Source: Reclinomonas americana ATCC 50394 (Eukaryota). From it: 64,000 bases of DNA. Position 1 is the stretch's first letter; every line of letters starts with the position of its first letter. Shown here in pieces: positions 1,566 to 62,813 of the stretch. The stretch lies in NCBI GenBank assembly GCA_048213135.1, contig PS015122.1, forward strand, positions 1-64,000. The letters are read 5' to 3'. The notes below the pieces were generated by a model. The model was given only the letters and a program-made list of their open reading frames with translations, was not told the origin of the DNA and ran no database searches. The translations under genes were made by a program, and so were the position numbers.

Positions 1566-4490
1566 TCTCGGGTACGAGGAGCACGTGGACTACGGTGAGC
1601 GGATGGGAGGTAGCTGTGCGATTCTGGTAGCCGCATGCTGAGTCAGCTCGTATCTCTTTTGCAGAGCTTGTGCAGAGCACGAATCCAGAGTTCAACAAGG
1701 CCGTGGTGCGTGTCAACGTCTTCCGCAGCCACCGGCAGACAATCCAGTACATTAGCCCGGAGGATGCTGCGAAACTGGGTCAGGCCGAGCTGGTGGTGAT
1801 TGACGAGGCGGCCGCCATCCCGCTGCCGCTGGTCAAGAAGCTGATGGGTCCCTATCTGGTGTTCATGGCCTCCACAATCAATGGCTACGAGGGCACTGGT
1901 CGCAGTCTGTCGCTCAAGCTCATTCAGCAGCTGCGTGAGCAGCAGCAGCAGCAGCAGTTGCAGGCGCCGGCACCAGCTGCCGCCGGCGGTGCGTCTTCGT
2001 CCTCCGCCCCTGCTCCTCTCGGCGATGCGGTGGCGGGAGTCACTGGGCGCATTCTTCGCGAGGTGCAGTTGGAGGAGCCGATTCGTTACGCTCCGGGTGA
2101 CAAGGTGGAGAAGTTGCGGAGACTGCGAGGTTGCTGAATTGCCATTGGTTCGGCGTGTTGCTTACAGTCTATCTCCTTTAGGTGGTTGTATGAGCTGTTG
2201 TGTTTGAATTGTGCCACTGTGCCGCGCTCTGGCCGAGGCTGCCCGCACCCGTCCGAGTGTGATTTGTTGCGTTTGCACTGGTCGGTGACATTGATACGCC
2301 TGCTGCTGCTTACCGTTCTCGCCGGGCAGGTATTTTGTCGAGCGCGACACGCTGTTTTCGTATCACAAAGCCTCGGAACTGTTCTTGCAGGTGGGTGTGC
2401 ACACTCTGTCGGTCCCGGTCTCTCTCCATCATTCGTGAGTCTCACAAGGGCGCCTCGAGCAGCGCATGATGGCCCTCTACGTGTCTTCGCACTACAAGAA
2501 CACACCAAACGACTTGCAGCTGATTTCGGATTCGCCCTCGCAACAGCTCTTTGTGCTGCTCGGTGCGTGTGTCTGTGTGCTCTCCCACTCTTTCAAGAGG
2601 GGCACCGCTTCTCACCGCCCCCTACTGGATGCAGGTCCCGTGTCGGCGTCGGACTCGGCCGTGCCCGACATTCTGTGCGTCATCCAGGTGGCGCTGGAGG
2701 GCAAAATCACCCGTCGCAGCATGCAACACAATCTGAGCCGTGGTTTCCGCCCGAGCGGAGATCTGCTGCCGTACACCATTGCTCAGCAGGTGAGGGACTG
2801 CGAAAGACGATAATTTTTCGCCTTGCGTACATGCATGCAAGTGGTTGCTCACCACTCGTGCACACAGTACCAAGACGACACGTTTGGTTCGCTCTCGGGC
2901 GCACGCGTGGTGCGCATTGCCACGCACCCGGATTTCCATCGGGTGCGTTTGTGTGCAGGAGGAAGAGAGAGATCGATACATGCCTCTTCGTGCACGCCCC
3001 ATCTTTGCTCACTGTCTGTGGTACTCGTAGATGGGCTATGGTTCGCGAGCACTGGAGCTTCTCTGCCGATACTTCCAGGGCGAGATGACGTCGTTTGCCG
3101 CCCCCATGCCTGCACCGCGCAAGTCCAAGTCTGCAAAGGTGGAAGAGACTGCCGCTGCCGACGATGACGACGACGAAGAGGACGAGGATGAGGAGGAAGA
3201 GGGCGAGAAAGGGGCGCGCAAGAGCAAGTCATCAAAGAATGGCTCTGCAGTTGCGTGCATGTCATCGCACCCTTTTTTGTGTGGTACTCCCCCACCTGGC
3301 TCACACTCTCCCTCCTCTCTGTACAGGCGTCCTCCTCCGGCTCCTCGTTGTCCACGGAGAAGATTGGTGTGCGCTCGGCACTCCCACCGCTGCTGCAGCG
3401 ACTAGACGAGCGACCGGCTGAGCACTTGCACTACGTTGGCGTGTCGTATGGGTTGACGCAGCCACTCCTCGAGTTTTGGTCGCGCTCCCGCTTCCGCCCC
3501 GTGTATCTCCGTCTGACCACCAACGACCTCACTGGTGAGCACACGTGCATGATGCTGCGTGAATTGGATCTGGCCGCCATTCCACCGTCGGCGGACGATG
3601 TTGTGCCACAAGGTGGCTGGCTCGACGCTTACGTTGCCGACTTCCGACACCGTGTGGCTCACTTGATGGCCTACGAGTTCCGCGCTTTCCCGTCCGCCTT
3701 GGCGCTCTCTGTACTCATGCCGAGCACGGAAATGAGCAAGCTGGCTGCGCCCAAGCCGCTGACGCTGCCGGAGATCGAAGCGCTCTTCTCGCCCTACGAC
3801 CTGCGACGACTGGACAGCTACAGCCGCAACCTGGTCGACTATCACGTCATTATCGACATGTTGCCGGTGCTGGCGCAGTTGTACTTTTCGCGTCGCTTCA
3901 CCTTTGCGCTGTCGTACTCGCAAGCGGCCATCCTGCTCGCGCTCGGCCTGCAGCACAAGACCGTGTCGGATCTCGAAGTCGATTTGCGCCTCGGCAGCAG
4001 TCAGATCCTGGCCCTCTTCAACAAGATCATGCGCAAGGCTGCGGCTGCACTGCGCGAGGTGGAGGAGGGAGCGATTGCCGCTGGTCTCCCTTCTCGACGG
4101 CGTGTGTCGTCGGTGTTGCCGGACGCCGGATCGTCGTCCATGGTGTCACTGAACGAGGAGTTGACCGAGGCCGGCAGCGAGGCGCGCAAGAGAATCACCG
4201 CCTTGCTGGAGGATGATGAACTGAAGGGGTGAGTGGAGCGCAGGCAGAAGAGGAGGGATGAGAGAGAGTTTTGTGTTGTCTCACTGATTTTCATGTGCAG
4301 ACTGGCCATTGCTGGTGACGAGGAGGACTGGAAGGCTGCACTCAAGGGCGTAAAGGACCCGACGCAGATCAGTGTCAAGGCCGGCAAGAAGCGAATTGCC
4401 GACGAGGGCACGGCGGCGGCGGGTGCAGACGATGGCAGCGACAGGAAGCGCCGAAAGAAGGAGCACGGGAAGAGTGGCAAGAAGCGGTAA
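1566..4490 (+). CDS. NAT10: NAT10/Kre33 central and C-terminal exons (helicase, GNAT and tRNA-binding domains), multi-exon
   Basis: Motifs QAELVVIDEAAAIP, STINGYEGTGRSLSLKL, SSHYKNTPNDLQ, GARVVRIATHPD, MGYGSRAL and YHVIIDMLP, then a Lys-rich tail with stop at 4488-4490. Confidence 0.96.
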
Positions 4491-5119
4491 TGCGGGGGAA
4501 GGCACGACAGTGAAGCGAGTCGATGAAATGAGGTGGCGCTGACGGAGGTAGGGCGCTAAAGGTCACACAATTCGAGGCAACAAAGTACATTTTCCTGCGA
4601 GCCGGAATGCTGGATGCATNNNNNNNNNNNNNNNNNNNNNNNNNNNNNNNNNNNNNNNNNNNNNNNNNNNNNNNNNNNNNNNNNNNNNNNNNNNNNNNNN
4701 NNNNNNNNNNNNNNNNNNNNNNNNNNNNNNNNNNNNNNNNNNNNNNNNNNNNNNNNNNNNNNNNNNNNNNNNNNNNNNNNNNNNNNNNNNNNNNNNNNNN
4801 NNNNNNNNNNNNNNNNNNNNNNNNNNNNNNNNNNNNNNNNNNNNNNNNNNNNNNNNNNNNNNNNNNNNNNNNNNNNNNNNNNNNNNNNNNNNNNNNNNNN
4901 NNNNNNNNNNNNNNNNNNNNNNNNNNNNNNNNNNNNNNNNNNNNNNNNNNNNNNNNNNNNNNNNNNNNNNNNNNNNNNNNNNNNNNNNNNNNNNNNNNNN
5001 NNNNNNNNNNNNNNNNNNNNNNNNNNNNNNNNNNNNNNNNNNNNNNNNATTTGCGCGCGCAGATTTCGCGCCAACACGCGATCGGAAATAAACAAACAGG
5101 TTTCACAATAACAGGCGTC

Positions 5120-8100
5120 TCACCGACGCTGCGGCTTGGCGGCGTTGCTACCCTTGGCAGCACGGCCACCACTACCGGGAAGTGACCGCGAACGGTCATC
5201 TAACAGCACCGACTCGAAAGACGACGACATAAATCCGGAGGCGCCTCCGCCACCCGCAGTCGGAAACGCTGGTGGATGCACACTCGCCGGTGGCGACTGC
5301 ATGCACGGAATCACGGACGAGTGTCAGACAGAGAGACAGAGGGCGTGCACAGCAGAGAAGAGACAATCGCACCATCAGTGAATGCGCGTGATTGGATCCC
5401 GAGTCTGTGCGCGAGAACACCACCCTCTGCGCCTGCAGATTGGCGGTCTTGTTCTTCTTCACCGTTGGCTGGCCCAGCGCGCTGAACGCTTCCTCGGGCA
5501 AATCCAGGAATGACGGTGTCGTCCGCGGAAAACGAAGCTGCCACACGTTGTCGATGAGCATCTTCAGCAACAGCAAAACCAACGACGACGACGACGACGA
5601 CGCAACAGCACTGTTGGAGTCCTCTCCACTGCCGCCAGACGACAACGGCGTCGACGGCATGGACAGAGACAAGGAGGACGCCACAGCATGGAAACCGGAG
5701 AAACCAGTTGTCGACGACTGCCGCGTATTCGAGTGCCGGTCAGCATTGAACGTGCAACGCAACGCAAAACACGCACACGCACCGTCGAATTCTTGCGCGA
5801 GACCGGCTTTTGAATGAGGTCGCGAACCTGACGCGAGTCTGCATCATCATCATCCAGCGTGCTGACATGCGACCTGGACATGACTTGAGCGTGCCGCTTG
5901 CGATTCTGTGTCGACGACATGCACCCAGTTACACACCGCAGAGGGCATCACGACACTTTACGCACACACGCACACGCACCATTTCTCGCATCCGACGTCG
6001 CTTCTGCGCTTGCTGTTTGTTGCGCTCGGCCTCTTCGTCACTGTCGGCACTGTGTGGATTCGACAATTCTTGCGATTGCGACAGGGGAGTGTGCAGACTC
6101 GAACTGTCGTGCGACAAGCTCGCGGGCAAGCTGTTGCCTTCGGCTCCGAACGGGTTGCTCGAGGACATGTTGCTGTGCGCATGGAAAATCGGTCAGCAAC
6201 CGCACGTAGCCGCACCACCTCACAACGGAGAAACGCACCGACGCTTGAGGGGCGGAGCATCCAAGGACAAGGGCGTCGTCGGTTCCACATGGTCCATGGC
6301 AGTGGAGCACATGGTGCGCGCACTGCGTTTTTATGTCAATACCAGCAAGCAACAGAGACTCATATTAGTTAGTATCACACGTGCGTACCGTTTCCTGTTG
6401 GTGCTTCGTTTCAATGCGAGACTCTGGCCGCCCTGCGCCAGCGCACTCAGCGAGGCACTCGAGCTGGCAGGCACCAACAGACGTGGCGGCGCCGTCGCCG
6501 AGGAGCGCGACTTGGTCGATGCCGACGACGATTTCGAGCTGTGTGATCGTGGTGCCACACCAAACATTTCGGCCAACTCGGCAATCTGCAGTGCAGTGAG
6601 TGCGTTGAGAAAACCAGGTCGCGGGGCAACCATAGCCACTCGCTCGCACCTCTGCATCGTCGTCCTCATCCAGCTGACGGTAGTGTGCACGGACAGCTTC
6701 CGCCTGCTCCACATCGTCTTCCTCCTCGTCCTCCTTCTCGTCAGCAGCCAGCGTGTCGTCCACGTGGTCGTCGACCTCATCCTCATCGTCCTCATCATGC
6801 TCGTCGGCGTCGTCGTCGTCGTCGTCGACGACGCCAGACAGACGAGGTCGACGGTCGGCCCCCGGCTCCATGTCTTCGTCCTCCTCCACATCGCACTCGG
6901 CTGAGACGAAATCGGAGCGCGGAAGCACCCGGCTGCTGACAGCTTCCCGAACCGGTGACTGGTGCAGCGGCGAAGGCGGCGGCGACCGATGCAGTGGTGA
7001 TGGAGGCGGCGTCGGCGATCTCTCATCGTCCGCCATGTCTGCCGACGGTGTCGTCGCGGATGCCGGCGATGGCAGTGAGGCGGCTGGCGACACTGCTGGC
7101 GCAGCATCACTTGCCGACGTCTCCGGTTTCTTGTCTTTGCGCTGTGGCAACCAGGGGAATTTTCTGGTCGTCTTCTTCTGCGGCCTGGTCGACACACAAT
7201 TGGAAACGTGTGAGATGGTGGTGTGTGGAGGGATCGACAGTGAGTGTCGGAGCACTCAACTTTTCAAAGATAGAGTAGATTGTCGGTTTGGCGGTGTTGG
7301 CCGCTGGCGAAGCTCTGCAAACAACACATCACCGCGTGAGGCGATTCATCTTGCGCGCGAAGAGTGAATGCACTACGCAACACAAATGGCGGTGGTGGAG
7401 GTGGTGGAGGTGGCGGTGGCGGAGGTGCAGGCGATTCCATTTCCTTTTCCTTGGGAGTCGAAAACGGAGCAGGTCTGCAATGCACGAGTGAGAAAGCAGC
7501 TACGCCATTCGCCATGCTCAAGAGGCGCTCACCGTCGACTGTCGAACAATGCAGGAGACTCGACCCTGCGGACGGAACGAGGTTACCGAGTGAGCATGCG
7601 GCCGACGAGGCGCGGCGAGGAGTAATGCGCAACTCGGTGGGATACTGCGACTCCGTCAGCAAAGACTCTGGCAACAGAAACGTACGAACGCTGTTGTCCT
7701 CGTCGCCACTCTCCTGCGAGTCCTTCTCCTCTTTCTCCTCCTTCTCCACCTCTGCATGCTCGACCGGCGGTACAGGATCATTGTCTGCAGCAGCAGCATC
7801 ATCTACAGCTGGCGGCACAGGCAGTGGTGTGTCGTCAGCAGCATCGTCTACAGCTGGTGGCACAGGCAGTGGTGTGTCGTCGGCATCTTGCGACGGCAGT
7901 GGCGGCAATGCCGATTCGTCCACCGGATCCACAGCAGCGGGCACAGCATCGGTGCTGTCATCATCCACTGCCTTTCGTGGTCGAAGTCCCAGATCCCCCA
8001 ACAAGTCGTCATCGTCCTCCTCCTCTTCCTCCTCCTCCACCTCCTCTTCTTCCATTTCATCTCCGTCGCCATCCTCCTCCTCATCGTCGTCACCCCCATC

Positions 8101-10843
8101 CACCTCTTCCTCGTCATTGTACTGGGTACGACGAGCGCGCGATCGCCTGCCGGTCTCCTCTTCGTCCTCCTCATCGTCCTCTTCTTCTCTTCCTCTCCTC
8201 CTCCGTCTGCGACTCGTCTCCTCGTCGTCGTCGTACTCGTTGTCGCCGTCGTCATCGTCAATGTCCTCGGGCACTGCGCGCTTCAGTCTCAGCATGGGAG
8301 CGTCGGCGGCGGAGCGCGGCACCAGCTTGGACATCAACGACGACTTTGCATCGACCAGTCGAGCCTCTTCGTCGTCGTCAAACTCCAGTTCCACCATGCC
8401 ATCGTCCTCCTCGCGCTCCGGCTTCACCACAACCTTTGGCAGATCGTCGGGCACCAGGCGCCGTTTGGACAACGACGTCAATCGCTGCTGCAACATGTCG
8501 CGGAACGATGAGAGTCCGGCGTTGAAGCTGGTACGCGGCTGCATCGACGCGGGTGCCGGCAGTGTGCGACGAGCCTCGCGCACCAGCCGATCGTTCTCCA
8601 CCAGATCGGCCAACGACAACCCCGACGGCTTGCTCCGTTTGCGCTTGCTCTGCGCAGGCACACTGTCAGGCAACACCCTACAAGGGTTTCCTCAAAAACC
8701 ACGCACCGGTGCTTCGCCGCCTTCCTCGTCATCACCACCACCGTCCTCGTCGTCTTCGTCATCGACATCGTCCACCATGCGACGCTGTTTTTTGGAGATG
8801 CGCTTCCCACCTCGCCGACCGCCACCATCGTCGTCATCGTCGACCATGAACCCACCGTCGCCGTCACCCACCGGCAGCGCCTCCAGCTCATCCAGGAACG
8901 AATCGCGCTGCTTTACGCGCTTCTCGCGACGCGCCGCCAGACCACGCGACATGGCGTTCTCTTCGTCGGAGTCGTCGCTCGTGGTGGTCTCATCGACATC
9001 CGACTCGCTATCGCGGCGTCGACGGCGTGGACGCGTCTCTTGCCCCGGCAACACCAACCGGCGTCGCCCGCCCTGGACCTTGACGGTGCGAATAATGGGG
9101 CGTCCGTTCTCGTCAAACTCGGCACGCGGACCGCGCGACATTTTCTCTCCCGGGGGCGGCAGCTTGCAAGCCTGCAGCAGGCGACGCGCTCGATCCTGCT
9201 GCTTCTCGGTCAGTGGCACGGCAGCATTGCCAACCTTGCCAGAACCAAGTGCGCGTCGAATCGCCTGCGAGAAAAGAAAATGGGCATGCGAGCGACGGCA
9301 CTTTGGGATCTTTCTACTTGATGACAACAGAACCTTCACGTAGTTGAGATTGAGTCGACCAAAATGGTCGCGGAACGGAAGCTTCCACGTCTGGCGCCGA
9401 TGTCGCTCGCCCACCACCAGGTAATCGTAGGGCTTGAGAAACTTGCGCCGCACCGACGAGGTGGGTTCGTCGCTCACGGCGATTCCTGCAGACGCAAGTG
9501 AGTCGAGAGAGCATGGGAAGGGACTCACAAAAAAACAGACCTTCCAGATCGCCAAGTGTGGACGCCGAGTCAATGCTCTCCGCATCTTCGTCATCGCTGT
9601 TGCCGCCTTCCTTTCCATCAGCAGCGGCACCGCTCTCTGTGCTGGCAGGCGTGGCCTTCTTGTTCTTCCACACTCGGCGCGGAGGTGGTGGCGACTTGGG
9701 TCGTGGTTGCCGTTTCTTCTTTGGCGCACTCTGCGACGTCACTGCAGGACCACGTGCACTCGCTGCATGTTCTCGCGTGTGAGCGCAGCAGAGTCATGTG
9801 CGGGGAGAGAGAGAAAAGGTGGAAGCAAAGACCTTTGCTGACGACATTGCTCTTCTCCTTCTTGCCGTCGCCCTCCTCCTCCTCCTCTTCTTCTTCTTCA
9901 TCGTTTCCTGCGTGACAACACCCAGTGCATGAGCGCACGCGCGCAGACTGCGACAAACACAAGTGAAACACACACCAGAGTCGCTTTTGCCGTCGGTGGT
10001 TCGCTCGGCATCGCTGTCTGCGGGCGGTTGCGACGATGCATGTTCCTTCTCGTCGTCGCCGGCATCCTCGTCCACACACATCTCACCGTCGTCGTCGTCG
10101 CTCGACGCTGGTGACGCGCAAATAAACAAAGAAGCAAGGGAAAGGAATGCATCAGTGGCCACGCACCACTCTCTTTTGCCTTCTTCTTTGTCCTTGTCGT
10201 CTTCTTCTTCTTCTCCTTGCTCTTCTTCGACGCACGAGGCTTGCGCTGCTTGACACTGGCGCCATCATCCTCCTGCTCATCTGCGACCTCTGCTACGTTG
10301 TGAGCGATGAGCTGAGCTGACTACACGCATCGCGCCAAACAACACACCATCGTCCTCTGGCGGCGCATCGTCGTCCACTGCACCACGAATGAGTGACAGA
10401 ACAACGACATTATCAACAAAAAACACGTACCTTGCATGTTTTCATGATGCTCCGTCTCCTCTGTCTGTATCTCCTCCTCCTCCTCCTCTTCTACCTCCTC
10501 TTCATCTTGCTGCTGTTCGGAGACTGCGAGGAGAACCCTGTGAATACAGACAAGAGACAGAGAGACAGAGAGAGCAAGAGAGACACAACGCAACTCTCGC
10601 TGAGCATCGCAGTCACCACACCGCGGAACTCATCAAAGCACTCGCGACCATCGAAGCCACATCGTTCTTTGAGTTTCTTGGCCAGCTGTGTGTGTGTGTG
10701 TGAGAGAGAGAGACGCAAACAGTTACACTTTTACATACACAGTGTGTTTGTGTTTGTGTGTGACGCACCTTCTTCAACCCGCATGAGGTCAAGTCGACCT
10801 CCTCCAAGAGAGCACGCAGGCTCTCTCTCGCGCGCTCGTCCAT
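5120..10843 (-). CDS. Large acidic multi-exon protein with an N-terminal DEK_C-like helical domain and an Mrc1/Claspin-like acidic region
   Basis: Starts MDERARESLRALLEEVDLTSCGLKK|LAKKLKERCGFD (DEK C-terminal-like) and has long D/E-rich exons. The segment FVSAECDVEEDED..VDDHVDD..AVRAHYRQLDEDDDAE resembles the MRC1 domain. The family call is by eye only. Confidence 0.5.
7785..7890 (-). repeat. Coding tandem repeat (DDTPLPVPPAVDDAA x2 plus a partial copy)
   Basis: The 45-nt unit containing ctacagctggYggcacaggcagtggtgtgtcgtc occurs twice. Confidence 0.8.
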
Positions 10844-10931: not shown

Positions 10932-11638
10932 ATGGCCAAATCACTGCGAAGCAAGGTGCGTGTGTGTGTGTGTGTGCGTGTGTACGCTGATGGGAGAGTT
11001 GGTGGGAGTAGAACGACGCGGACGAGAGAAAGAGTGTCCTCTTTTCGGCCATGTGCACATTCACATCACCAGCTCACTCACACTCCGCTCACACTCGCCA
11101 CACAGGTGAAGCGCAAGTGGCGTGCGGTGGCGCGAGCAGGAGCGGAGAAGTTTGAAGACGCGCGCTTGCAAAGGATCGCCGCGACGCTGCAAAAGTCGTT
11201 GGAGACGCACCAGGCCACGTTGAAAGCCACACCCACAGACACGCCGATGGTCACCACTTGTTGCGTGCCACTCCCTCCTCTTACAGTCTCTCTCTCTTTG
11301 CGCGCGTATCTCATCTCGTTGTTTTTGTAGTGGAGAAGCTCGACGCCGAGATGAGAACACTGGAGGAGAAGGCCGGCTCAGCATCATCTGCTCCCAGTGG
11401 CGATGTCGCCATGGCATCATCATCAACAACAGCAGCAGCAGTGGGAGGTGGGTCCAAGACACTGCGCCCTCGTGGCAAGAAGGTGGTTGTCAAGCGGCGT
11501 CACAATCCTCAATCGCGATCGGCCGACTCGCCCGGACGTCGCAAGCACAGCGGCTTTGGCGGCAAGAATCTGCAGCGCAATCACGTGCGGAGAGTGTCGG
11601 CGAGTGTTCCGCGTCGTGTGCGAGGCAAGGGCATGTAA
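10932..11638 (+). CDS. LLPH: LLP homolog (LLPH/LAPS18 family), 3 exons
   Basis: MAKSLRSK|VKRKWRAVAR matches the family N-terminal motif MAKSLRSKxKRKxR, and the C-terminus is basic. Confidence 0.75.
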
Positions 11639-11699: not shown

Positions 11700-12430
11700 A
11701 TGCGATTGCACGCGGTGAGTCGCGGAAGAGCTCTGTCTCTGCGGTGATCGTTGTTCACACGCACGCACGTACACACACACAGGTGCATTTTGATCGCAGA
11801 AAGAGTTGCGTGCTCTGATCGGTGATTGTGTTGCATGTGCGCTGACAGACAGACACCTCCGCACAGATGAGTTTGAACGCTCCTTTCCTGCGGCACTGGA
11901 TGGCAAGGTAGCGCTCATAATCACACACACACACTCTCTCCCTATCTTTCATCATCTCACACGATGGCAGATTATCGCCTCGGACTATCACATGGCGATT
12001 GGCAAGCTGAACGGGGCGCTGCGTCGCGGTCGCAGCTTCTGGTTCCTGGTCTTTTTTGTGCCCGTGTGCCTCGTGGTCATGTGGGCCGTCTACGCCCCGC
12101 TGCTGTTCATCACGGCCGCGCAGCACTCGCAGCAGGCGCCGCCGACGATTTCGTTGGTCGTGCTGGCACTGGTCACGGTCGGACTGGTGGTGTTGGCGGT
12201 GCGCGAGTTGTGGCGATTGTTGCAGCCGGTGGGTGCACCTGCTCTCCCTCCCTCTCTCTCTCTGTTTTGGTCTGACGTGTGAGCACGTGCAGTCGTGGAG
12301 ACGACTGGTGCCGGTGCTGGAGAATNNNNNNNNNNNNNNNNNNNNNNNNNNNNNNNNNNNNNNNNNNNNNNNNNNNNNNNNNNNNNNNNNNNCACGTCGT
12401 CGGATTCCAGCCGTACGACGAGGCGGTGAC
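11700..12430 (+). CDS. Small membrane protein, Erf4/Golgin A7-like; 3' end interrupted by a gap
   Basis: Spliced translation MRLHA|VHFDRRK|NEFERSFPAALDGK|IIASDYHMAIGKLNGALRR is followed by two hydrophobic helices. The F..FP..L.G...N pattern resembles the Erf4 domain. Confidence 0.45.
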
Positions 12431-15160: not shown

Positions 15161-18100
15161 ATGTCACGGCAACTACCACAACAGGTGGCCGGTGGCGTGC
15201 GTCCTCGAGGCGTGTTTGCGTCGTACGGCAGCTCGGGAGTAATGTCGTCATCGTCTTCATCATCGCCGTCTTCAGCGGCTGCTGCTGCCGCTGCTGCGTC
15301 ATCCACACTGGTCGGTCATCAGCAGCCACCAACTCAGCCTGTGCCGCCGCCAGCGCTGGCCCGCAACCCAACTCCACCCTCCAACAAGGTTCGCGTCCTC
15401 ATGCCTGCCCAGGCTCCGTTTAGCTCGGTCGGCTCCAGCAGTGTGACAGGCGACGCCCCTGTTCCGCCGCCGGTACTCGGCGTGCCACCTTCGGCGTCGG
15501 CAGAGCGATGGACATCGCCGCTGGCGCGCGCACGTGAGGCAGAGAGCGTACCCACCTTCAAGTTCAAGGCCTCTATCGAACCTGCTGTGCTTCGCACCAA
15601 CGGCAGCAGCATTCAGCCGGTCTCCATTGCCCAGCAACCGCGTCGACAGTCGTTTGGAGCCGACGGCAGCGGGAGCGGCATGAATCCGCAGACCGACGCC
15701 GGCAGCAACGGGGTTGGAGTGACATTTGACCTCGATGATCCCAACAGCGCCAGTGCTCGGCGCGCCAACTCGGCCTCGCGTGCTCGTGCAGTGACTGGCG
15801 GTGTGCCGAGCAAGCGATCCACCGTGCTGACACAGCGTTCACCCGCACGGAGTCGCACTGGCCGCGTGACGCCACCCACTGCGGTAACGACCATCACCAC
15901 ACACGCGGGTATCTTGGCGAATGGTGGCTCTGGTGCAGCGACGGTGGCCGCTGGAGCACATGGGTCCGACAACCCAGCAGGTGTGCCGGCACGTTCGTCG
16001 TCTGCCGGCCGCTCAGTGTCGCCCACTCGCCCGTTGGTCACTGTGGCCACCAACTGGGGCTCCCGTGCGCCACCTCCAGAGCCGACGCATGTGGCTGGCT
16101 CCGTGCCGGCTACGTCGCCGCTGACACTGGCGTGGGTCATGGCCCAGCGACACACCACCACCGACACCGACAACGACAATGCATCGTCAACCCGGAGCGA
16201 GTCTCCGGGCGAGTTTCCGCTGGAGGCGGAGGTTCCGGATCGCATGACGCCACAAAACGGTCGGCAGTCGCGTGGAACACCAACGCAGAGTGGCACACCG
16301 ACTCGCACCACAACACCAACGCGCAACTCGACACCCACTCGCAACTCCACTCCCACACGCGGTACGCCCACCAATGAGCATGGTGGACGCCGTAACAGCG
16401 GAGGCAGTGTCACTACCAATGGCAGCAACTCGGCCTTTGCACCGACCGGCGGCAGCAGCAGCAGTTCTGCATCCAAGTCCGGCACACCGACTTCCCGACC
16501 CGTGGTCAAGTCCCAGAAGGTCAATGTGGTGTCGGCCAATCCCGAGGAGCCGCACCAGCACCAGCACCAGCAACACGGGAGCAGCAGTGGCGGTATGTGT
16601 GTGTCTGGCAACAAGTTTTCTTTCGCCGCCACCTCATTCGTTCAATGCTCTTCTCCACCTTGCAGGCGGAAGCGGTTCGACATCACCACGTTCGGCCGTG
16701 CTGTCGGCGGAGCCACAATGCGTGCAGCGCACATCACTGCACACGCTGATGCACGAGCAGCACGTGTGGGCAGCCACGTTCTCGCCCGATGGTCAGCACC
16801 TGCTGACCACGGCCATGAATCGCGTCATTCGTCTGTTCGACATCACCAATGGCAAGGCGCTGCTGGAGCTGAGCGGTCACAGTGCCGATGTCACCTGCTG
16901 CGCTTATCACCCGAAGCAACCGCGTTTCGTGACTGGCTCCGGCGACAACTCGATCATGGTGTGGGATGCGCAGACCAACACGTCGCTCGCCACCATGTTT
17001 GATCACAAGGACGGCGTGCGGTGCATTGTGTTTGAGCCCACCAACGGCTCAGTCTTTGTCACCACCTCGTGGGATGCGACGGCCCGCGTGTACGACTCGG
17101 CCACGCTCCGCTGCATCGCCGTGCTCGCCGACCACGAAGACGCGGTGTTTTCGTTTGCTTTCTCTCCCGATGGCACTCAGGCGGTGCGTCTATGTCTGTA
17201 TTCGCCACAGCTCTGGGCATCGTGCTCACATTCATGCTTCATCCCTCAGGTTTCCTCCTCCAAGGATCGCACCATTCGTGTGTGGAACATGAGCACGCAC
17301 CGATGTGAAAAGGTGCTGCGCGACTCCAACCAGGTGTGGAGTGTGGCGTACTCGCCAAACGGCAAGCAGATTGTGTCGGCGTCGCGTACCATCAAGGTGT
17401 GGGACGCAGCCTCGTACAAGCTGTTGGCCACCCTCGGTGGCCACACCGACGACGTGTCGAGCGTGGTGTTCCATCCGTCTGGCGCGCACTTTGCCACGGC
17501 ATCATGGTAATGCGTGCCTGTGTATGTCGGCGCATATGGTTGCCTCACGGCGCTCACTCTTTGTGTGTATTCACCAGGGACTGCACTGTGCGTCTGTGGG
17601 ATAGCGTCACGTTCCGTTGTTTGGCCGCGCTGCGATCACACACCGGTCCCATTTGGTGCGTCTCTGTCTGCACAGCAATAGTGGGGAGTCGCTGTGTTTC
17701 TCACCATCATCATCATCATTATCGACGCAGGAATGTGACATACAATGGCGCCGGTACTCACCTCGCTTCGGCCTCGGCCGACGGCACGGTGCGACTGTGG
17801 GAGCCGCCGTGCACCGTGTTTTCGCACAGTCTCGAACTGCATGTCGACGTGGCCACGAAGAACACGCTGTCGATGCGTCTGAAGCAGATGCCGTCGGTGC
17901 CGTGCAAGTGCGAATTGCAGCAAGTTGCGCCGCCGCCACCCCTGTGCTCGTACACATACGCATGCTTCAGTTGTCTCACTCCGTCTCCTGCACAGCTGGA
18001 TCCCTTCACGCAGCGATACACCTCGTGTGGTCCGATTGTCGCCAGCGAGAGCACACGAGTGCACGGCCTGCAGCCGCACAGCGAGTACACGTTCCGCGTG

Positions 18101-46343: not shown

Positions 46344-47975
46344 ATGGGCGACAGTGACTACGCTGCATGGCCGACCTCGCCCAGCGCGGCTGCGCGTGTG
46401 GGCATCAACTCACTGGCGGCCTCCTTCACTGCCGACTCGCCTCGCCACGCCCCTCAACGCAGTCTGCCTGCGCAGTCGACTCCGCTCTACACCTCCAGTC
46501 GCTCACACTCTGCGGCCTCCTCCACGGGCTCCTCGCCTGCGCATCGTCCACAGTCGCACTCGGCACTGATGGTCTCCGGAGATCGCTTCATGTTGGACGA
46601 GGAGGAGGAGGAGGGAGATGAGGTCATGTTCCGCAGTGCAAAGGCCTATGATTCGTATGGTGAGAGAGAGAGAGAGAGAGAGAGAAGAGTGTGTGTGTGC
46701 GTGTGTGTGTGATGATTGTGATTGATGCATTGCATGACTGACTGATGCCTTTGTTTGATTTCAGCTGCTTCCATGTCGCCTAGTGGGCGGTTGCGCTTGC
46801 TGCCCTCGACTATCTTTGCTGGTCTGTGTGTGTGTCTATGTGTGTGTCTGCGTGGATTCTGTTTCTGACTGTTGCACAGGCGAGGAGCAGGAGTTCGGAG
46901 GATTGGCTGTTGCGTTTTCTGCTGTCTGCGAGCTTGTGTTTGCTTCCTCACTGTGTGCGTGCAGAGACATGCGGAGGTGACGATGAGGCAACGGTGGCTT
47001 GGTGAGTGCGGATGTGATTGTCGTGACGAGCATCCTTTCACTGACTGCTTTGTCTCGTGCAGGAATGTGCTCATGTGGACGGCGCAGCTACGATGTGGTG
47101 GGCGTGGACAAGGCCATTCTGTTCCGGTTGCGCAACAAGAGCAACTGTTGTTGCAACCATGTGCGTCGTGTTGTTCTGTGATGAGCGATTTCCGAGCATT
47201 CATTGTCATCCTTTCATCTGCAGTGCGTGACTTTTTGTTCCGAGACCGAGTTTGTGGCGCGGACGAGGGCTGTCGGTGGCACGCCGCACAGCGAGGACGC
47301 AGATGACTCAGATGATGAGAGCGCAGGCGGGCGGCGCACTCCGCGCACCGGAGACGGGGTGGTGTTCTCCATTGTGCAGCAGGCGTCGTGTTTGTCGCGG
47401 AGCATGTATGTTGCGTACACGTGTTGCAGTGGTGTGACAGGGAAGGAAGGTTGTAGTTGGTGATCGCGTTTCCGCCACACAGGTGTACGATAACGAGGAC
47501 ACGCCAATAGGGCGCACGTACCGGCCGATCTTTTGCTGTACGCAGCGAATCGATGTGTTTATGCGAACACCGCTGGAGGGCGAACGGAAAGTGTTTGAGG
47601 TCGAGTCCATCCGCGCGTGCGTCGGCTGCAATGACGTTGCGTGGACCGGCCGTACGCGTCCGTCCTTTTTGTTGTCGCCCCGGCTCACCTCCCCCTCGCG
47701 CGCAGTATTCATTCATCATCCGCTCTGCGGAGTCTGGCGAGGAGTTGGCCGTGATCACACGACGCTGGCAAGGTCTCTGCAAGGCCGCGATGAATCTAGA
47801 AGGTGCGTTCTGCTCGCTATTGTTGTGTGGCTGTACAGGGGAGGGTCTGACTGTGTCTGCAGACTGGAGCATCTCGTTTCCGCAGCATGCTGGGGCCATT
47901 GAGCGCGCCTTGTTGGTCGCCGCCGTCGTGCACCTGGATGTTGTCTTGGGTCAGCAGAAGAGTGGGTCGTCGTAG
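46344..47975 (+). CDS. Phospholipid scramblase / Tubby C-like protein
   Basis: Cys clusters, IGRTYRPIFCC, and ELAVITRRWQGLCK..WSISFPQHAGAIERALLVAAVVHLD, which matches the PLSCR C-terminal pattern. Confidence 0.8.
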
Positions 47976-48041: not shown

Positions 48042-49763
48042 TCATTCATCATTCATTATACGTGTGGAGTCTGGTGGTCGCAGCAGTCGAGCGGTGAGCG
48101 GATTTGGCGTATCGTACGCCCCCGACTTGCTCAGCAGCACCACCGAATCGTGGTTTGTCGCGGTGGTATCCTGCAGCTCTGTTGCAGCAGCAAAGGATGT
48201 TGTGGAGGCGCGCCGCTTGTCCCACAACCACTGGCCGACCCACACGCAAACACGGAACAGGAAGCCGCAACCACCAGCAATGCTGATGAGCGAGGCAATG
48301 TATGCGGTGGGCGATATGGCAACCTGGGCGACAATGAGCGAACGGACGACGAGGACACGAAAAGCTTCATCGTCCTCCGCCGCACCTCGCGGTACGTGAG
48401 AGCACCGGCTCCGTCGAGAACAAACGCAATGATCGACACGTACATGTCGTCGGGGTTCAGCGCTCCACCAGTGGCCGCCATGCTGTAGCGCGTGTAGTTC
48501 TCGCTCGAGTTGAGGAACCTGGGTGGGGGGACACAGATGAGGTCGCCGACGGAGGGAGACATGCCGGGATTCTTGCACGCACTCGTACGTGACCGGGGCC
48601 ATCACGATTTCGTTGTTACTGGTCTGTGGTCAGGCACGTCAGCACGTCGGCAAAACATCATGCCAGCAGGAACCAGCATACCGTGTTGACAATCACGCCA
48701 GTCACCGTGTCCATGGAAGTGGTGACTGCGCGAAGCGAGGGAGAGTGAGGGAGAGAGAGAGAGAAGAATGCGAGGAGGAAGGAGGAAGGAGCAGAGTGAA
48801 GGAGAACGCAGAGCGAGGTTTGTTGCGCGGGCAATTGAGACGCAACGCTGGCCAAACATGAGCTTCACCGACGAGGCGACCGTCGACTGCGCAAAACACC
48901 GCAGGTTACAATCTACGACGAAAGATCCCAGAACAGGGTCATCGAAGAGCGCACCGTGGTGTCGGGAGTAAAGACGACCTTGGAGATGTCGAGTCCCGGC
49001 TTCGGCGTCATCGTGTACACCATGAGCTGTGTGCTCCCCGGCGGCGCTGGCTTCTCCAGCATGAAGATCAGCGGATTGCCAATGAGCACCGAACCCGGCA
49101 GCGTCTGCAGCGATCCGAGATTGCAGTCACAGTCGAGACAAGCTGCGAGGAACAGGAGGAAAAGTCGAACCTGCGCGACATTGACCATCCAGCAGTACGC
49201 TCCTTTCTGTTGATAGATAGACAGCAGTGGCGGCACGTTACCAGCAGACGGCCATCTGTGCGTGCATCAGCGGAGGAATGGGGTCCACTGAGAGAGAGAG
49301 ACTGGTCATAAAAAAACGCAACACTGCCTCATCGCAGGGCGTGAGGGTGGCCGCCGAGGTGTCCAGGAAGCAGCGGAACACGGGAACGTACTGTGGCACA
49401 TCGGCACGGTCCATAACAAGACACACAGAGAACATGGGAAGCTGACCAGTCACGCGCGAGGCTGTCACAGACAGGTCGGGATTCTGCGCGTGCATGTGAT
49501 GAGATCAATCATCCCTAGTCAGTCACTCACGCGCTCACTTGCTCACCTGGTGTGACTGCACAAGGTGCACCGTCTGCAGCACGCGCAGGCATGTGAGTGT
49601 GAGCAGGAGGGAGGGCAGAGAGAGAGAGACGCACATAATACACAAAGAAGGCGATCCACACGAGTGCGGCCAGCAGCAGTGGCCAGCGAAGAGTCAGCCA
49701 CTGTTGTGAGCGGTACCATGGAGTGGAGACTGGAGGAGAGGAGGGAGTGGAGGTGCCCCACAT
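48042..49763 (-). CDS. Uncharacterised two-transmembrane protein with a Cys-containing ectodomain
   Basis: N-terminal TM WPLLLAALVWIAFFVYY and C-terminal TM AYIASLISIAGGCGFLFRVCVWVG; multi-exon. Confidence 0.55.
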
Positions 49764-49961: not shown

Positions 49962-52463
<2,502 letters not shown>

Positions 52464-55853: not shown

Positions 55854-56498
55854 CGAGAGACGCAACGCTATCCTCTCGCGCCAGCATTGTCGGCTCAACC
55901 ACCACCTAACAAAGCAAAAATCAGGCGAGAGGGAACGACAATAGCAGCATCACGGCAGTAGCAACAGTACGCACGTCAAACAGATACACATTCTGATCGA
56001 CATCCGACAGTTGCATCAGGCAGAGACGACCTCTGGACATCGCGGTGAGCACACACACTACGAACGCTTGCACAAACGATTGAACTCACGTGTATCCGAG
56101 ACTGACACCCTCACAATCCCAGCCAAGCACAGTGCTCGAGTCCAGCAATCGTTGCGACACGGCCTGGCACTGCGCGTACGTCGTAATGTAGTGCGTCTCG
56201 GCACTGTCGTTTGGCACAAACGGGATTGGAGCTACGCATGAACGCAGGTGAGATGATCATCAACAACAGGAACAAACACGCAGTCGATCGCGTCCACGCA
56301 CGAGGATCAGGCATGCGAATGGTTCCCGACGACTCTGCGCACAGCATCATTCGTCAGTGGCGGAGAACGATGAAGAAGGAGAGAGAGAGGAGGAGGAGGA
56401 GGAGAAGGAGGAGGAGGAGGACAAGAAGAAGAAGGAGAATAAGAAGAACAAGAACAAGAACAAGAAGAAGAACAAGAAGAAGAAGAAGAAGAAGAAGA

Positions 56499-56540: not shown

Positions 56541-56579
56541 GAGGAATAAGAAGAAGAAGNNNNNNNNNNNNNNNNNNNN

Positions 56580-56616
<37 letters not shown>

Positions 56617-56940
56617 CTCCTCTCTCTCTCTCTCTCTCACTCTCCTCTCTCTCTTCTCTTCTCTCTCTCTTCTCTCTCTCTTCTCTCTCTCTCTTCTCTC
56701 TCTCTCTCTTCTCTCTCTCTTCTCTCACACCTCATAAGGAAAGCCCGCATGTGCAATGTGCGCGGGAATGAGCCTATCGCCCGCAGTCGAGGAGGAGTCA
56801 GTGGCAAGTGACGAGCACGAGGCCTCATCACTCACACCGTCCTCAGTCACCACATCATCCTCTGCACCTGCACACACACACACACACACGTGAGACACAG
56901 AGAGTGAGCAGAGAGGAGCACAGACAGCGCAACTGCTCAT
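52781..56940 (-). CDS. DEDDy 3'-5' exonuclease domain protein (EXD1/Egalitarian/WRN-exo-like) with an uncharacterised C-terminal region
   Basis: ExoI VLGWDCEG, GRLCLMQL..VYLFD, ExoII KVIHDLRCD, VFDT, WEVRP and ExoIII YAAGDV. The gene spans two N gaps and its start is inferred. Confidence 0.8.
56370..56727. repeat. Low-complexity (GAA/GA)n tract followed by a (CT)n tract, separated by a 20-N gap; intronic
   Basis: Seen directly. Confidence 0.9.
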
Positions 56941-57242: not shown

Positions 57243-58318
57243 ATGATTGTGGCCGCGGCCTTGGCTGCAGCAGCTGCGCGACAGACAGAGACGTCGTCGC
57301 CGGTGACTCCTCCCCACTATGCGCCTTCGCCACTGTCGCCGACGCGTTTGTGGGCCGGTCAGCAGGTGTATCAGTATGCTCCGGTGGTGGTGGCGAGTGA
57401 GGCGGAGGAGGCGGCGTATTATGAGTCGGCAATTGCGTTGGAGCTGAAGGCGTTTGCGGCGGATCTTGGAGCTGCTTCTTCTTCGACGACGACGACCACA
57501 ACGACGACGACTACTGTGAGTGGGAAGCGTTTGCGAGGAGAGGACGAGCAGGAGGAGCAGGTGGCGGCGACGGTGGCGGTCAAGAGACCACCGAGAAAGC
57601 GCAGAAAGCTGCTGATCTCGTCGTCGGACGATGGTGCCGATCGGAAGAAGAAGGCGAAACGAAAGACACTGGCATCTCCTTCCTCCTCGTCATCGTCATC
57701 GTCGTCGTCGTCATCGTCGTCATCATCTTCTGATGAAGGCGACGATAAGCCACTGTCGGCGCTGCTCATGGGAAAGAAGGGCAAGCAGGTCAATCATCGC
57801 TGTCCACCACCACAGTCGTTCCATCTGTGTGCTCACTGCCGACGTGCAGGCCAAGAGTGCTGCTGCTGCTCCTGCTCCTGTTCCACCACCACCACCACCA
57901 CCTCCAGCTCCAGCTCCAGCTCCGGCTCCGGCGCAACCTGCGCCGCCCAAGATCCGCACCAGTGGCAAGAAGCTGAAGATTGAGCAGGCGGAGATCCCGC
58001 GCTTCAAGTACGACTCGACGGCGCCCATCTTCAGGTGCCCGTCCTCACCCTCGCCAGTGATGTCCCTTGCTCCTCACTCTCATGTCCATGCGCAGTGGTA
58101 TTCGGCAAAAGATGTTGGGTGCACTGATCGAGCAAGCGGCGTGGTTGCCGCAATGCCTCAACGCGAAACACGTGATTCGGTACGCGATGCAGCTGGAGGA
58201 GAACGCGTACACTCGGAGTCGTGGAGTGGAGGTGGTGTACAAGGGATCGATAGCGGCCGATGTGATGCGCATCAAGAGGGCGGTGGCGAGCAAGGAGATG
58301 TTGACAGACGTGCGGTAA
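57243..58318 (+). CDS. Hypothetical nuclear protein, low complexity with a small C-terminal helical domain
   Basis: NLS-like KRPPRKRRK, poly-S and poly-P tracts. The C-terminal GIRQKMLGALIEQ..AMQLEENAY..VYKGSIA loosely resembles TFIIS-central/REXO1-type helical bundles. Confidence 0.5.
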
Positions 58319-58491: not shown

Positions 58492-59698
58492 TCAGTTCTC
58501 TTGCTCGTCGGTGTCCGGCTCGGCGTCCTTCTCGCCACCGTCGTCGTCGGGCAGCACAAAGTCGTCCTCCACGGCGTACCTGCATTGGTGGTGAGTGTCA
58601 CCACGCGGGTGTGCATCATCCTGCGGGAGGCGAGACGCAACAGAATCTTGGTGACTTCCTCGAGGAAAGGTGGCACGGCGTCGGGGGCGGCCTCCTGCGT
58701 TGTCTGGCACATAATCTCAATGTCGCGCAGCTTGCCAAAGTAGAAGTCACGCTCGCGCTCCAGGCCGTCCACAATCAGCTTCAGCTCGGCCAGTTGTTGC
58801 TNNNNNNNNNNNNNNNNNNNNNNNGGAAGGAGAAGGAGAGCAAAAGAGACGGTGCAGGGGAGGATGACAAGGAAGAGATTTGCATGGGGAGTTTTTGGAG
58901 ACCTTCGATCTGCGTCAACGCCGGCCGCTTGACTGTTCGGTGGACACATGTGCACACACGCATACACACACACAATGCAGGGCACCGACGATGTATGAGC
59001 GGCTTTGCCGAGGAGCAGTACCCATGCTTTTTCCTCCTCTGAAACTCACTCTGGCCCAGTTCCCCGACGCACACACGCACACACAATCAGCACGCCCTCA
59101 AACCGTTGTAGCGGGCAATGGCCGAATCGCGCTCGTACTTGGCGTCGTACGGCGTCTGGTCGTAGTGCAACTCAAAATACCGCTTCATCCACTGCAGATG
59201 CGTGGTGAGCCGCGTGTGGAGCGAGAAAACAATCATCAGCAACACTACAAACGCGCCTGCACAAACTCCAAGTTGTCGAGGTACTTGGCCTTGACGAGCT
59301 TGTCGACCTCAATGTTCTGCACGCGCGCAGTCAGTCGCCGTGTGCAGCGCAGCTGCGAGAATAATAATGAGTACCTTCTTGATGTTCAGCTTGCTGAAAG
59401 CCGCCTGCAGGATCTTGAAGTTGTTGACATACTCGTGCTCCAGCTTGGCGTTGAAGTTGACCTTGTGCAGTGCGATCGAGTCTGCACACACAAGTTGTCA
59501 GTCAGCAGACAGCACAGAAATGCACAGGGTGCCCGAGGAGCGCAATACACACCAGGGAACAGAATGTGCATCAGCTGGCAGTGAGCCGCTCCTGTGAGAG
59601 AGAGGCAAGGCGANNNNNNNNNNNNNNNNNNNNNNNNNNNNNNNNNNNNNNNNNNNNNNNNNNNNNNNNNNNNNNNNNNNNNNNNNNNNNNNNNNNNN

Positions 59699-60567: not shown

Positions 60568-62813
60568 ATGAGCCAGCGTCGCTTTGATTTGACTGTGTTT
60601 GGTGCCACGGGTTACACTGGTTACTAGTCCATCGCAGCATGCTTCACTCTATGCATTTTTTCACTCACTTTTTTTGTCTTTTTTGTGTCTTTGTGTCTTT
60701 CTCTCTGTGTGTGTGTTGTTGTTGTCAGGCACGCTGATTGCCGAGTACCTCGCAAAGCAGCATTACGATGCGAGCAAGCTGTGTTTGGCCGGGCGGAGGT
60801 GAGTGCTTGCGTGAACGGAGTTGATTGATCGGAGTTCGCATGCACGCACACACGCGTTTCTCTCCGTCTCCTCTCTGTCTGTGTCTCTGTCTGCATGTGC
60901 ATGAGTGGCCGAGTGCGCCCTTGTGTCTGTGTGCATTGGAACTTGTACAAAGTGAAGATTCTCTCTCATGATCACTTTGCAGCAAGGAGAAGCTGGAGGC
61001 TCTCAAGAAGCACTTGGAGGTGCGTGCATTCTCTCCTCCTCCCTGCCTGCCTGCCTCACACTCTCTGTATCTCACCGCGCACACTTGCCCGACATGCAGA
61101 GCATTGAGAAATCGTTCAATCGCGTCAACCTGCTGGTGGCCAGTGTCGACAATGCCGACGAGGTCGAGGCCATGATCCGCCTCACCAAGGTCGTTGTCAA
61201 CTGCGTTGGTCCCTTCTTCCGCTACTCCGAGGTCGTCGTCCGCAACTGTGTCGAGCACGGCACTGATTACGTCGATATCACGTTGCGTCACTCTCTCGAA
61301 TACAGGTCATCTGCTCCTCACTCATGCGCGAGTGCAGTGGCGAGCCCAACTTCATTGCGCTGATGATGGACAAGTATCAGGAGCAGGCCGAGCGCAACAA
61401 TGTGCTCATTATTTCTGCGTGCGGCTTCGATTCGGTGCCCGCCGATGTCGGCGTGCAGTACGCGCGTCAGCAGTTCGGCATCGATCGTGTGCGCTCCGTC
61501 GAGGGCTATGTGTCGCTGAAGAACTTTGGGTTGTCGGCCGGCACGTGGAACACCATGCTGGACAGGTGGGGCAATGGGGGGAAGAGGGGAGGGGGAGGAA
61601 AGGGGCAAGGGGGATAGAGAAGGCGCAGAAGCAAGAATTGTGAGGGCATGTGTGTGTTTATGCGAGAGAGCGAAGCTGAGGAATATGGTAGTCTCTTGAA
61701 TTCGTCCACCAGGTGATAGAAACAGATTTTGTCACTCTCTGTGGTGGTGCTTCATGAGACGGAGCAAGCGTCGTATTCGTGTCAGATGAGAAGAAGTGTG
61801 AGGAAAGCGTTGATGAGCACCGAGAGGGAGAAATTGAGTACTGCATTAGCGTGTCATGTTTGCGTTTATTGCGGGCACCGCCGTCGCCTTCCGCTCACCA
61901 TCGCTTCTCCGACCCCACAGCATCGCCAACGCCAAGCAGATGGCTGCCGTGCGTCGCAAGAGTGCTGGCCCGCCGCCGGCTTCGATCCCGAAGGTCTGCT
62001 CTTTCCACGTATTCCTTTTCCAAACTCTCTCTCTCTCTCTCACGTATTCTCGCGTCGCGCAGGAAAAGCGCGTGCTCAAGAAGCTGCCGCACAAGTGCAA
62101 GCAGATGGACAACACGTGGTGCATTCCATTTGCCACCTCCGACCCGTTTGTGGTGCGCAAGACGATTGAGATCCAGGCGGACAAGTCGATGCCCTACTTC
62201 CAGTACGGCCACTACCTGTCGGTTGGCGGTCTGTTCCGACTGATCATCATGGCGCTGGGATTCGCGTTGGGTTGCGTCGATCAGCACGCGAGCAAGAACT
62301 CGGCCTGTGACTCACTTGTGTTCGTGCCAGTGTTCCTGCTTGCCAAGTTCAAGCTCACGCGCGACCTGCTCCGCAAGTACAAGTCGGAGGGCTCGGGGTG
62401 AGTTACCTGGAGGAAGGGTGCGTGTGTGCTCGACCTTTCTCAACTGTGTGATCTCGGCTCGTGCAGCTCGTCGGTCGAGAGCCGCCAGTCGAGTCGCTCG
62501 AGAATTCTGTTCGTCGCTCGCGACGACAACGGGAAGCTCCTGGGACAGGCGGAGTTCACCGGCGCTGATCCCTATGATGTCACCGCTGTGACTGTCGTGC
62601 AGGCGGCGCGCGTGTTGCTGGAGAAGAGAGTTGCGTCTGCAACGCTACCTTTCTCTCTCCATCTCACTGTTCTTCTCACACGCTGCTGCTGCTGTTGCGC
62701 AGGAGCAACTGCCGATGCGTGGTGGTGTGGCCACCCCAGTGTCGGCACTCGGCGACGTGTACACGGACTACCTGATGCGCTGCCCGGAGATTGCCTTCCG
62801 CAAGGTGGAATGA
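60568..62813 (+). CDS. SCCPDH: Saccharopine dehydrogenase-like oxidoreductase
   Basis: FDLTVFGATGYTG, LAGR, VVVNCVGPF, YVDITGE, CGFDSVPADVG and GGVATP. Confidence 0.92.

Follow-up and report, generated by a model that had tools for sequence, protein, structure and literature searches.

We analysed a 64,000-nucleotide window of the Reclinomonas americana ATCC 50394 genome (contig PS015122.1 of assembly GCA_048213135.1, positions 1 to 64,000, forward strand) for introns whose 5' splice site (donor) begins with GTTGCG. The window is GC-rich (49-62% per 4 kb), lies in a draft scaffold with 8 N gaps, and carries dense genes interrupted by short introns, among them genes for NAT10, a DEAH helicase, a TARBP1-like methyltransferase, EB1 and a saccharopine-dehydrogenase-like protein. 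A first-pass annotation of the window had listed 32 GTTGCG sites as donors. All 32 positions begin the hexamer on the strand given, and the description of the sites was right: +5 is C, and the GCGT block stands one base downstream. On both strands of the window there are 91 copies of GTTGCG, compared with 67.0 +/- 8.2 in 100 dinucleotide-preserving shuffles, none of which reached 91. T is the next base in 44 of the 91 copies.

Introns were called with a purpose-written Viterbi gene finder. Codon log-odds were trained on the same window, introns were modelled as GT...AG jumps, and bonuses for YAG and for an upstream CTNA[CT] word were combined with a length penalty. Using a GT-only donor model, we obtained 153 introns, in which the commonest donor heptamer was GTTGCGT (11); GTTGCG accounted for 13 donors and GTGCGT for 14. 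A three-class donor mixture was fitted as well; it saw intron bases +1 to +9 and no exon bases. With the mixture, genes scoring >30 contained 147 introns, whose donors included GTTGCG (30), GTGCGT (23), GTGTGT (11) and GTGAGT (9). Were positions +3 to +6 independent of each other, a check proposed in the first-pass annotation, 1.12 GTTGCG donors would be expected instead of 30. Predicted donors made up 24 of the 44 copies of GTTGCGT versus 23 of the 116 copies of GTGCGT.

The mixture model employed 24 of the 32 listed sites as donors, and homologues fixed three more that the model had missed (2266, 46164 and 62271), which brought the supported sites to 27. The remaining five (11260, 11805, 52238, 55866 and 56933) lie outside modelled genes and were unsupported. 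Seven further GTTGCG donors were called, 5 of them in doubtful introns of 159-208 nucleotides (nt). Two GTTTCG variants had been reported as well; the one at 35110 was placed correctly, whereas the G of the second is at 36687 and had been given as 36688. Gene finders that rely on one donor matrix put GTTGCG introns in the wrong place: ours did so until the class was modelled, and it then still missed the three homologue-proven sites. The introns with GTTGCG donors are as follows.

2113..2181 (+), GTTGCGG intron, NAT10, 69 nt; exons abut on 8/8 homologues with one split-codon residue between
2266..2329 (+), GTTGCGT intron, NAT10 (ECDL|YFV), 64 nt; consistent with 8/8 homologues; missed by the gene model
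3250..3326 (+), GTTGCGT intron, NAT10, 77 nt; predicted; in a variable acidic stretch, not pinned by homologues
7315..7381 (-), GTTGCGT intron, 67 nt; predicted; absent from the first list
7475..7633 (-), GTTGCGC intron, 159 nt, unusually long; predicted, low confidence
10524..10594 (-), GTTGCGT intron, 71 nt; predicted
17924..17995 (+), GTTGCGC intron, 72 nt; predicted
18157..18322 (+), GTTGCGA intron, 166 nt; low confidence; mixture model only, another run picked a different donor
19106..19169 (+), GTTGCGT intron, 64 nt; predicted, donor-agnostic run included
20713..20776 (+), GTTGCGT intron, 64 nt; predicted
23900..23960 (+), GTTGCGT intron, RasGEF gene, 61 nt; predicted; next exon matches RasGEF_N 25-61 from its residue 2
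27070..27232 (+), GTTGCGT intron, rich in GTGA repeats, 163 nt; predicted
27483..27539 (+), GTTGCGT intron, 57 nt; predicted
30778..30844 (+), GTTGCGT intron, DEAH helicase (ETSLT|IDDV), 67 nt; pinned, 4/4 homologues
34254..34473 (+), GTTGCGC intron, 220 nt; predicted, 3' end uncertain
36024..36083 (+), GTTGCGT intron, 60 nt; predicted, donor-agnostic run included
37549..37632 (+), GTTGCGT intron, 84 nt; predicted
37864..37948 (+), GTTGCGT intron, 85 nt; predicted
39404..39489 (+), GTTGCGT intron, 86 nt; predicted
40706..40779 (+), GTTGCGT intron, 74 nt; predicted
44824..44890 (+), GTTGCGT intron, among the few with -1 G, 67 nt; predicted
46164..46218 (+), GTTGCGT intron, TARBP1-like methyltransferase (RSLNV|HVS), 55 nt; pinned on 2ha8_A, the only PDB match of the next exon; missed by the gene model
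46909..47087 (+), GTTGCGT intron, 179 nt; low confidence; mixture model only, gene score 36
47127..47291 (+), GTTGCGC intron, 165 nt; low confidence; mixture model only, gene score 36
47410..47482 (+), GTTGCGT intron, 73 nt; predicted; links 75- and 139-codon open frames
47636..47705 (+), GTTGCGT intron, 70 nt; predicted
48726..48846 (-), GTTGCGT intron, 121 nt; predicted; absent from the first list
49256..49322 (-), GTTGCGT intron, 67 nt; predicted
50957..51018 (-), GTTGCGT intron, glycosyltransferase-like gene, 62 nt; predicted
57730..57937 (-), GTTGCGC intron, 208 nt; low confidence; predicted, gene score 17
58580..58641 (-), GTTGCGT intron, EB1 gene (KIL|YA), 62 nt; predicted; consistent with the Pfam EB1 profile, not pinned
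61282..61337 (+), GTTGCGT intron, saccharopine-dehydrogenase-like gene (VDIT|GE), 56 nt; pinned, 14/14 homologues, one split-codon residue between
62271..62330 (+), GTTGCGT intron, saccharopine-dehydrogenase-like gene, 60 nt; exact on 3/3 junction-reaching homologues (14 examined); missed by the gene model
62630..62702 (+), GTTGCGT intron, saccharopine-dehydrogenase-like gene, 73 nt; exact on 6/7 junction-reaching homologues, off by one residue on the other

To locate the junctions, each exon was translated alone and aligned to homologues; a junction was taken as exact if 0 residues lay between the abutting exons, or 1 in the case of a split codon. Seven GTTGCG junctions (2113, 2266, 30778, 46164, 61282, 62271 and 62630) were pinned to the residue. 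Several junctions had previously been placed by conserved protein motifs alone, and the alignments bore most of these out. At ECDL|YFV of NAT10 (2266), 4 of the alignments touch both exon ends, exactly. At ETSLT|IDDV of the DEAH helicase (30778), the exons abut with one split-codon residue between them. At RSLNV|HVS of the methyltransferase (46164), residue 160 of PDB 2ha8_A is the last one covered by the upstream exon and residue 161 the first covered by the next, and the exons also abut at VDIT|GE of the saccharopine-dehydrogenase-like gene (61282). KIL|YA of EB1 (58641) was consistent with the Pfam EB1 profile, which stands at 38 of 41 right at the exon end, but it was not pinned: of the 52 residues of the upstream exon, the alignment to PDB covered none past residue 35, and the next exon (28 residues) had no match in PDB. 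As a control, four canonical NAT10 junctions behaved like the NAT10 GTTGCG junctions in the exon alignment. Pfam scans exon by exon provided profile coordinates for only 6 of 20 exons. For the 75-residue exon at 61339-61563, a homologue search based on shared words found none; a full HMMER search did find homologues.

In their anatomy, GTTGCG introns resembled canonical introns, which we defined as those with G at +5 and a base other than T at +3 (n=89). All 30 modelled GTTGCG introns and all 89 canonical introns ended in YAG. A CTNA[CT] branch-like word was present in 27 of the 30 and in 74 of the 89, with a median distance of 18 nt from the branch A to the 3' end in both; the branch-word test is not fully independent, since the CTNA[CT] word is rewarded by the gene model. 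The median intron length was 72 nt for GTTGCG and 68 nt for canonical introns (Mann-Whitney p = 0.12). With no difference in length, branch-word distance or 3' end, the two groups use the same splicing machinery. GTTGCG introns share nothing past +7, and the information content falls to 0 bits at +8. When the 147 introns were compared all against all by blastn, as would reveal introners or a transposon-derived intron family, only short simple-repeat matches came back, so a copied element can be rejected as the source of the class. Introns of the U12 type (minor spliceosome) carry RTATCCTT at their start and a branch site like TCCTTAAC; neither motif was present in the inspected intron sequences.

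GTTGCG(T) thus represents a genuine class of ordinary GT-AG (U2-type) donors, the second major one, and serves about one intron in five in this window. When GTTGCGT is aligned under G|GTGCGT, 6 of 7 places agree, and the statistics around the donor follow this offset on the intron side. The last exon base, -1, is G in 65 of the 89 canonical donors but in only 2 of the 30 GTTGCG donors (Fisher p = 7.6e-11). Among GTGCG donors 26 of 35 have -1 G, versus 87 of 350 non-donor copies of GTGCG; the GTTGCG class shows no enrichment of -1 G. GTAGCGT, GTCGCGT and GTGGCGT taken together were donors in 0 of 35 copies, as would follow from pairing at U+3 in a shifted register. T occupies +7 in 24 of the 30 GTTGCG donors, and its counterpart, +6 T, is found in 55 of the 89 canonical donors. 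Moving the canonical profile by one base described the class better than leaving it unmoved, both on the exon side (log-likelihood -136.6 vs -165.3) and over +7 to +9 (-118.1 vs -134.2). A shifted register, a bulged register and variant U1 or U6 small nuclear RNAs (snRNAs) had been put forward for this class; the rarity of -1 G, the need for T at +3 and the frequent T at +7 favour the shifted register, and the first two of these disfavour the bulged one for the step involving U1. As to reading frame, phases 0, 1 and 2 were found in 12, 6 and 15 GTTGCG introns (n=33) versus 41, 26 and 22 canonical ones (chi-square p = 0.02); in this small sample, the GTTGCG phases are compatible with a one-base displacement of the canonical distribution (p = 0.56).

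We propose, with a probability of roughly 0.55, that GTTGCGT is G|GTGCGT, the commonest canonical site of this genome, one base out of register and read by shifted U1-type pairing. A U1-type snRNA would bind these sites in the +1-shifted register. The intron G+1 would occupy the usual place of the last exon G, U+2 would face, as a mismatch, the U1 base that normally pairs with G+1, and U+3, G+4, C+5, G+6 and U+7 would stand in for canonical +2 to +6. The cut would stay at the only GU, presumably fixed later by U6 and U5 in the manner of the human shifted-register sites. Once U1 had left, a U6 with the standard box would probably reach G+6 and U+7 only with one U looped out.

Such pairing has a precedent in humans, where a shifted register and a +2/+3 bulge register of U1 are established (PMC4856993). 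At the human shifted-register sites (Roca and Krainer 2009, via PMC4856993), as is proposed here, all pairs between 5' splice site and U1 move by one position while the cut stays at GU, and the shifted-register oligonucleotide ACA/GUCAAGUAUA described there lacks -1 G like the GTTGCG class. In that paper, validated noncanonical bulge and asymmetric-loop registers together make up 1.5% of 201,541 human sites. Human shifted sites are rare, whereas here one invariant heptamer, known from sequence alone, accounts for about 20% of modelled introns; and the GCG core of the class, unlike the human shifted sites, pairs poorly with standard U1. Within a limited library, the literature on this motif and on shifted or noncanonical registers comprised human work and a mention of tunicates, and described no genome with a major shifted class. 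Among metagenome contigs, a scan for the helicase motif with GTTGCG behind it had no hits.

The reader of GTTGCGT sites is presumably U1. We infer that U1 here pairs with the C, having G at position 5 and an ACGYACC-like 5' end, or that a second U1 variant exists, because canonical donors prefer C at +4 (C 41, A 24, T 21 and G 3 of 89), which standard U1 would mismatch. The +4 preference itself hints at a U1 with G opposite +4, as standard U1 would favour A and tolerate G. In folding calculations, a hypothetical U1 with G at position 5 paired with the class at a mean of -5.6 kcal/mol, and the +1 register had the lowest energy at 21 of 30 sites. The U1 5' end is accordingly predicted to read ACGYACC, or a second copy to read ACGYAAC. 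No snRNA gene in the window matched at the gathering score or at E up to 1. If the proposal is true, the genome offers a natural large-scale test of cleavage-site choice independent of the U1 helix, and of how U6 handles an extra base. Shifted and bulged U1 registers have so far come from a few human sites, each studied singly; here one heptamer serves about one-fifth of introns.

Several observations weigh against a shifted U1 register. The 5' end of standard U1 pairs only weakly with the class (mean -1.5 kcal/mol vs -6.05 for canonical donors), with the +1 register at 7 of 30 sites and no common register; as standard U1 pairs poorly in any register, the model has to predict a non-standard or a second U1. 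-1 G is rare also in GTTGCG copies that are not donors (9/60, compared with 3/31 in donors). On the exon side, the moved profile was no better than background (-136.6 vs -137.9), so that the exon evidence consists of an absent G rather than a present shifted signal, and the lack of -1 G would be expected just as well if the exon side were not read. Shifted forms of other cores are nearly absent, GTTGAGT being a donor in 2 of 6 copies and GTTCAGT in 0 of 2. The shifted and canonical donor counts were 24 and 23 for GTTGCGT and GTGCGT, 2 and 9 for GTTGAGT and GTGAGT, and 0 and 4 for GTTCAGT and GTCAGT. The shift is thus almost confined to the GCG core, which the model explains only by assuming strong G:C pairing. 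In addition, most introns rest on our own gene finder trained on this window, and 7 of 34 GTTGCG introns, each above 150 nt, are doubtful. Related donors with other cores are as follows.

35110..35172 (+), GTTTCGT intron, variant of the shifted class, -1 T, 63 nt; predicted
36216..36279 (+), GTTTCGT intron, variant, -1 G, 64 nt; predicted
36687..36754 (+), GTTTCGC intron, variant, 68 nt; predicted; upstream exon matches Pkinase 19-71 to residue 53 of its 54
7185..7260 (-), GTTGAGT intron, shifted form of G|GTGAGT, -1 A, 76 nt; predicted
17611..17730 (+), GTTCCGT intron, possible variant, 120 nt; predicted

A special case of the shifted register, which we regard as unlikely and whose probability is counted within that of the shifted register, is a dedicated second U1 with an ACGYAAC-like 5' end, the base facing G+1 being changed from C to A, fully complementary to GUUGCGU. 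Such a 5' end paired with the class at a mean of -11.4 kcal/mol in one register at 30/30 sites, and pairing with the canonical class fell to -6.1 kcal/mol. The tightness of the heptamer suits it, with +7 T at 24/30 and with C at the equivalent of canonical +4 throughout, the latter by definition of the class. Sliding an intron by one base at both ends cannot convert one class (GTTGCGT or GTGCGT) into the other, which poses an evolutionary puzzle. The slide appears unreachable by single mutations, as the base before AG would itself have to belong to an AG; therefore the class must be stably and efficiently recognised. No second species is required, however: G at position 5 of one U1 is enough to put 21/30 sites in the +1 register. 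Two parallel 5' splice-site codes, in which the common U1 reads G|GUGCGU and a second U1 reads GUUGCGU one base out, would be a tentative extension of the shifted register. If they exist, a dedicated snRNA variant is needed for one-fifth of introns, and cutting is uncoupled from the U1 helix genome-wide.

Altered U1 5' ends, some of which are said to have evolved together with the donor sites, have been reported from other protists. In the available part of Roy and Bowser (bioRxiv 10.1101/2022.06.08.495308), Entamoeba is described with GUUUGUU donors and a U1 of AACAAAC, Mastigamoeba balamuthi with GUGCGC donors and a candidate U1 of ACGUAC, and Physarum is said to have both standard and modified U1. 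Mastigamoeba resembles the present genome in its GUGCG-type donors with C at +4, and in being a GC-rich, intron-rich protist; its candidate U1 has the G at position 5 for which the folding calculations call. It differs in having C at +6, where T is found in most canonical donors here. An origin of the window in Mastigamoeba, considered for GC content (60.7%) and GUGCG donors, was not supported, given the T at +6 and a protein search that turned up nothing near-identical. For the Archamoebae, that portion of the source gives one consensus in the canonical register and mentions no second shifted class, whereas there are two classes here. The window's NAT10 does not group with two dictyostelid sequences, the sole amoebozoans in a quick NAT10 tree. 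It pairs instead with one protein (60%, the highest identity in the alignment), outside fungi, dictyostelids, an animal and a streptophyte; its 300-residue exon had a top protein match of 52% identity in the search.

A bulged-U register, in which U1 pairs normally with G+1 and U+2 and then with GCGU in the manner of GTGCGT, while the U at +2 or +3 is bulged out, is a poorer candidate. GTTGCGT can indeed be written as GT + T + GCGT, that is, as a canonical site with an extra U after GU, as in the human +2/+3 bulge register (Roca et al. 2012, via PMC4856993), which has been proposed for 68 human 5' splice sites (PMC4856993), and one invented test context with -1 G folded in the bulged register. 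Yet a bulge would retain the G:C pair at -1 and leave -1 G as frequent as in canonical donors, contrary to the counts above. The extra base, moreover, need not be T in a bulge, whereas GTTGCGT alone among the four GTNGCGT heptamers provided donors. Even when U1 carried G at position 5, the mixed 0/+1 register was the nearest-neighbour energy minimum at no more than 7/30 sites. The GTTGCG class therefore differs from the +2/+3 bulge register in lacking a -1 G preference and in taking T only as the extra base. A bulge may still serve the U6 step, where a standard U6 ACAGA box would need a bulged U.

Recognition without U1 pairing, with the heptamer read by a protein, directly by U6 or U5, or by another RNA, seems to us as improbable as the bulge. 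The weak, register-free pairing of standard U1 and the want of an exon-side signal above background both agree with it. In the available text of bioRxiv 10.1101/2022.06.08.495308, moreover, the Mamiellales (Ostreococcus and Micromonas) have GYGCGY donors and Thecamonas has C at +4, both with a standard U1, so that a +4 C preference occurs alongside an unaltered U1. The Mamiellales resemble this genome in a canonical GTGCGT class with a strict short-intron grammar; the branch words here are CTCAC/CTGAC-like, not ACTGAC, and the same text describes no shifted class for Mamiellales or Thecamonas. Against recognition without U1, the heptamer exactly reproduces the commonest canonical site at an offset of one base, +7 T included, which would be a coincidence if the readers were unrelated, and in the catalytic register no more than 2 of positions +2 to +6 would find a partner in a standard U6 ACAGA box.

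An artefact, either an assembly that systematically carries one T too many or intron boundaries one base off, is very improbable and already largely refuted, even though the assembly is a draft with N gaps and with pieces of one gene on opposite strands, and even though the exon after the intron begins with G in 7/30 cases, where a later cut would give an identical mRNA. A spurious T would turn these sites into ordinary GTGCGT donors with -1 G in about 73%, whereas 7% was seen, and errors would not favour donors, yet more than half of the GTTGCGT copies are donors. A cut one base later in the same reading frame was rejected: introns would then end in GN, with N showing no consensus (G 7, C 9, T 8, A 6), and the YAG seen throughout under the GT reading would be lost. 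Both junctions at which the protein readings differ favour GT-AG. At 46164 the GT-AG reading gives H, as in 2ha8, and the later cut D; at 62271 the split codon gives V and the later cut G, where homologues carry F, I or L. The pinning of seven junctions by homologues points the same way.

The listed GTTGCG copies that fall outside the supported introns are the following.

11260..11265 (+), GTTGCGT, outside modelled genes; a 71-nt intron would join 113- and 101-codon open frames; plausible, unsupported
11805..11810 (+), GTTGCGT, outside modelled genes; unsupported
52233..52238 (-), GTTGCGT, outside modelled genes, followed by repeats; unsupported
55861..55866 (-), GTTGCGT, running into the N gap 55182-55783; unsupported
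56928..56933 (-), GTTGCGC, outside modelled genes; unsupported

Long simple repeats of GT, CT and GAGT type occur in introns and spacers at 27070-27232, 22441-22644, 52050-52240 and 56457-56665. Rfam gave sub-threshold, microRNA-like matches at 56457-56665 and 51983-52237, where simple repeats adjoin an N gap; those near the gap 56560-56579 occur on both strands, and we took these matches as chance.

Some gene models in the window may need correction. The N-terminal part of NAT10 (P-loop and helicase) lies at 104-1353 (-) and the remainder at 1566-4490 (+), with N gaps at 625-859 and 1354-1565; probably a contig of the scaffold was wrongly oriented. A predicted gene at 5120-10843 (-), encoding about 1470 residues with 18 introns, is acidic, proline-rich and of low complexity, and its coding call comes from codon usage only. 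In the saccharopine-dehydrogenase-like gene, a 355-nt 'intron' at 61566-61920 (+) is far above the norm, and the next, 24-residue exon (61922-61993) aligns to no homologue; a small exon may have been missed here, or the model may be wrong. The gene finder broke the DEAH helicase (29318-32597, +) in two, closing one gene at a stop at 31646 and opening the next at 31792. The same helicase homologues align to either part, and one intron near 31500-31790 was probably mis-modelled.

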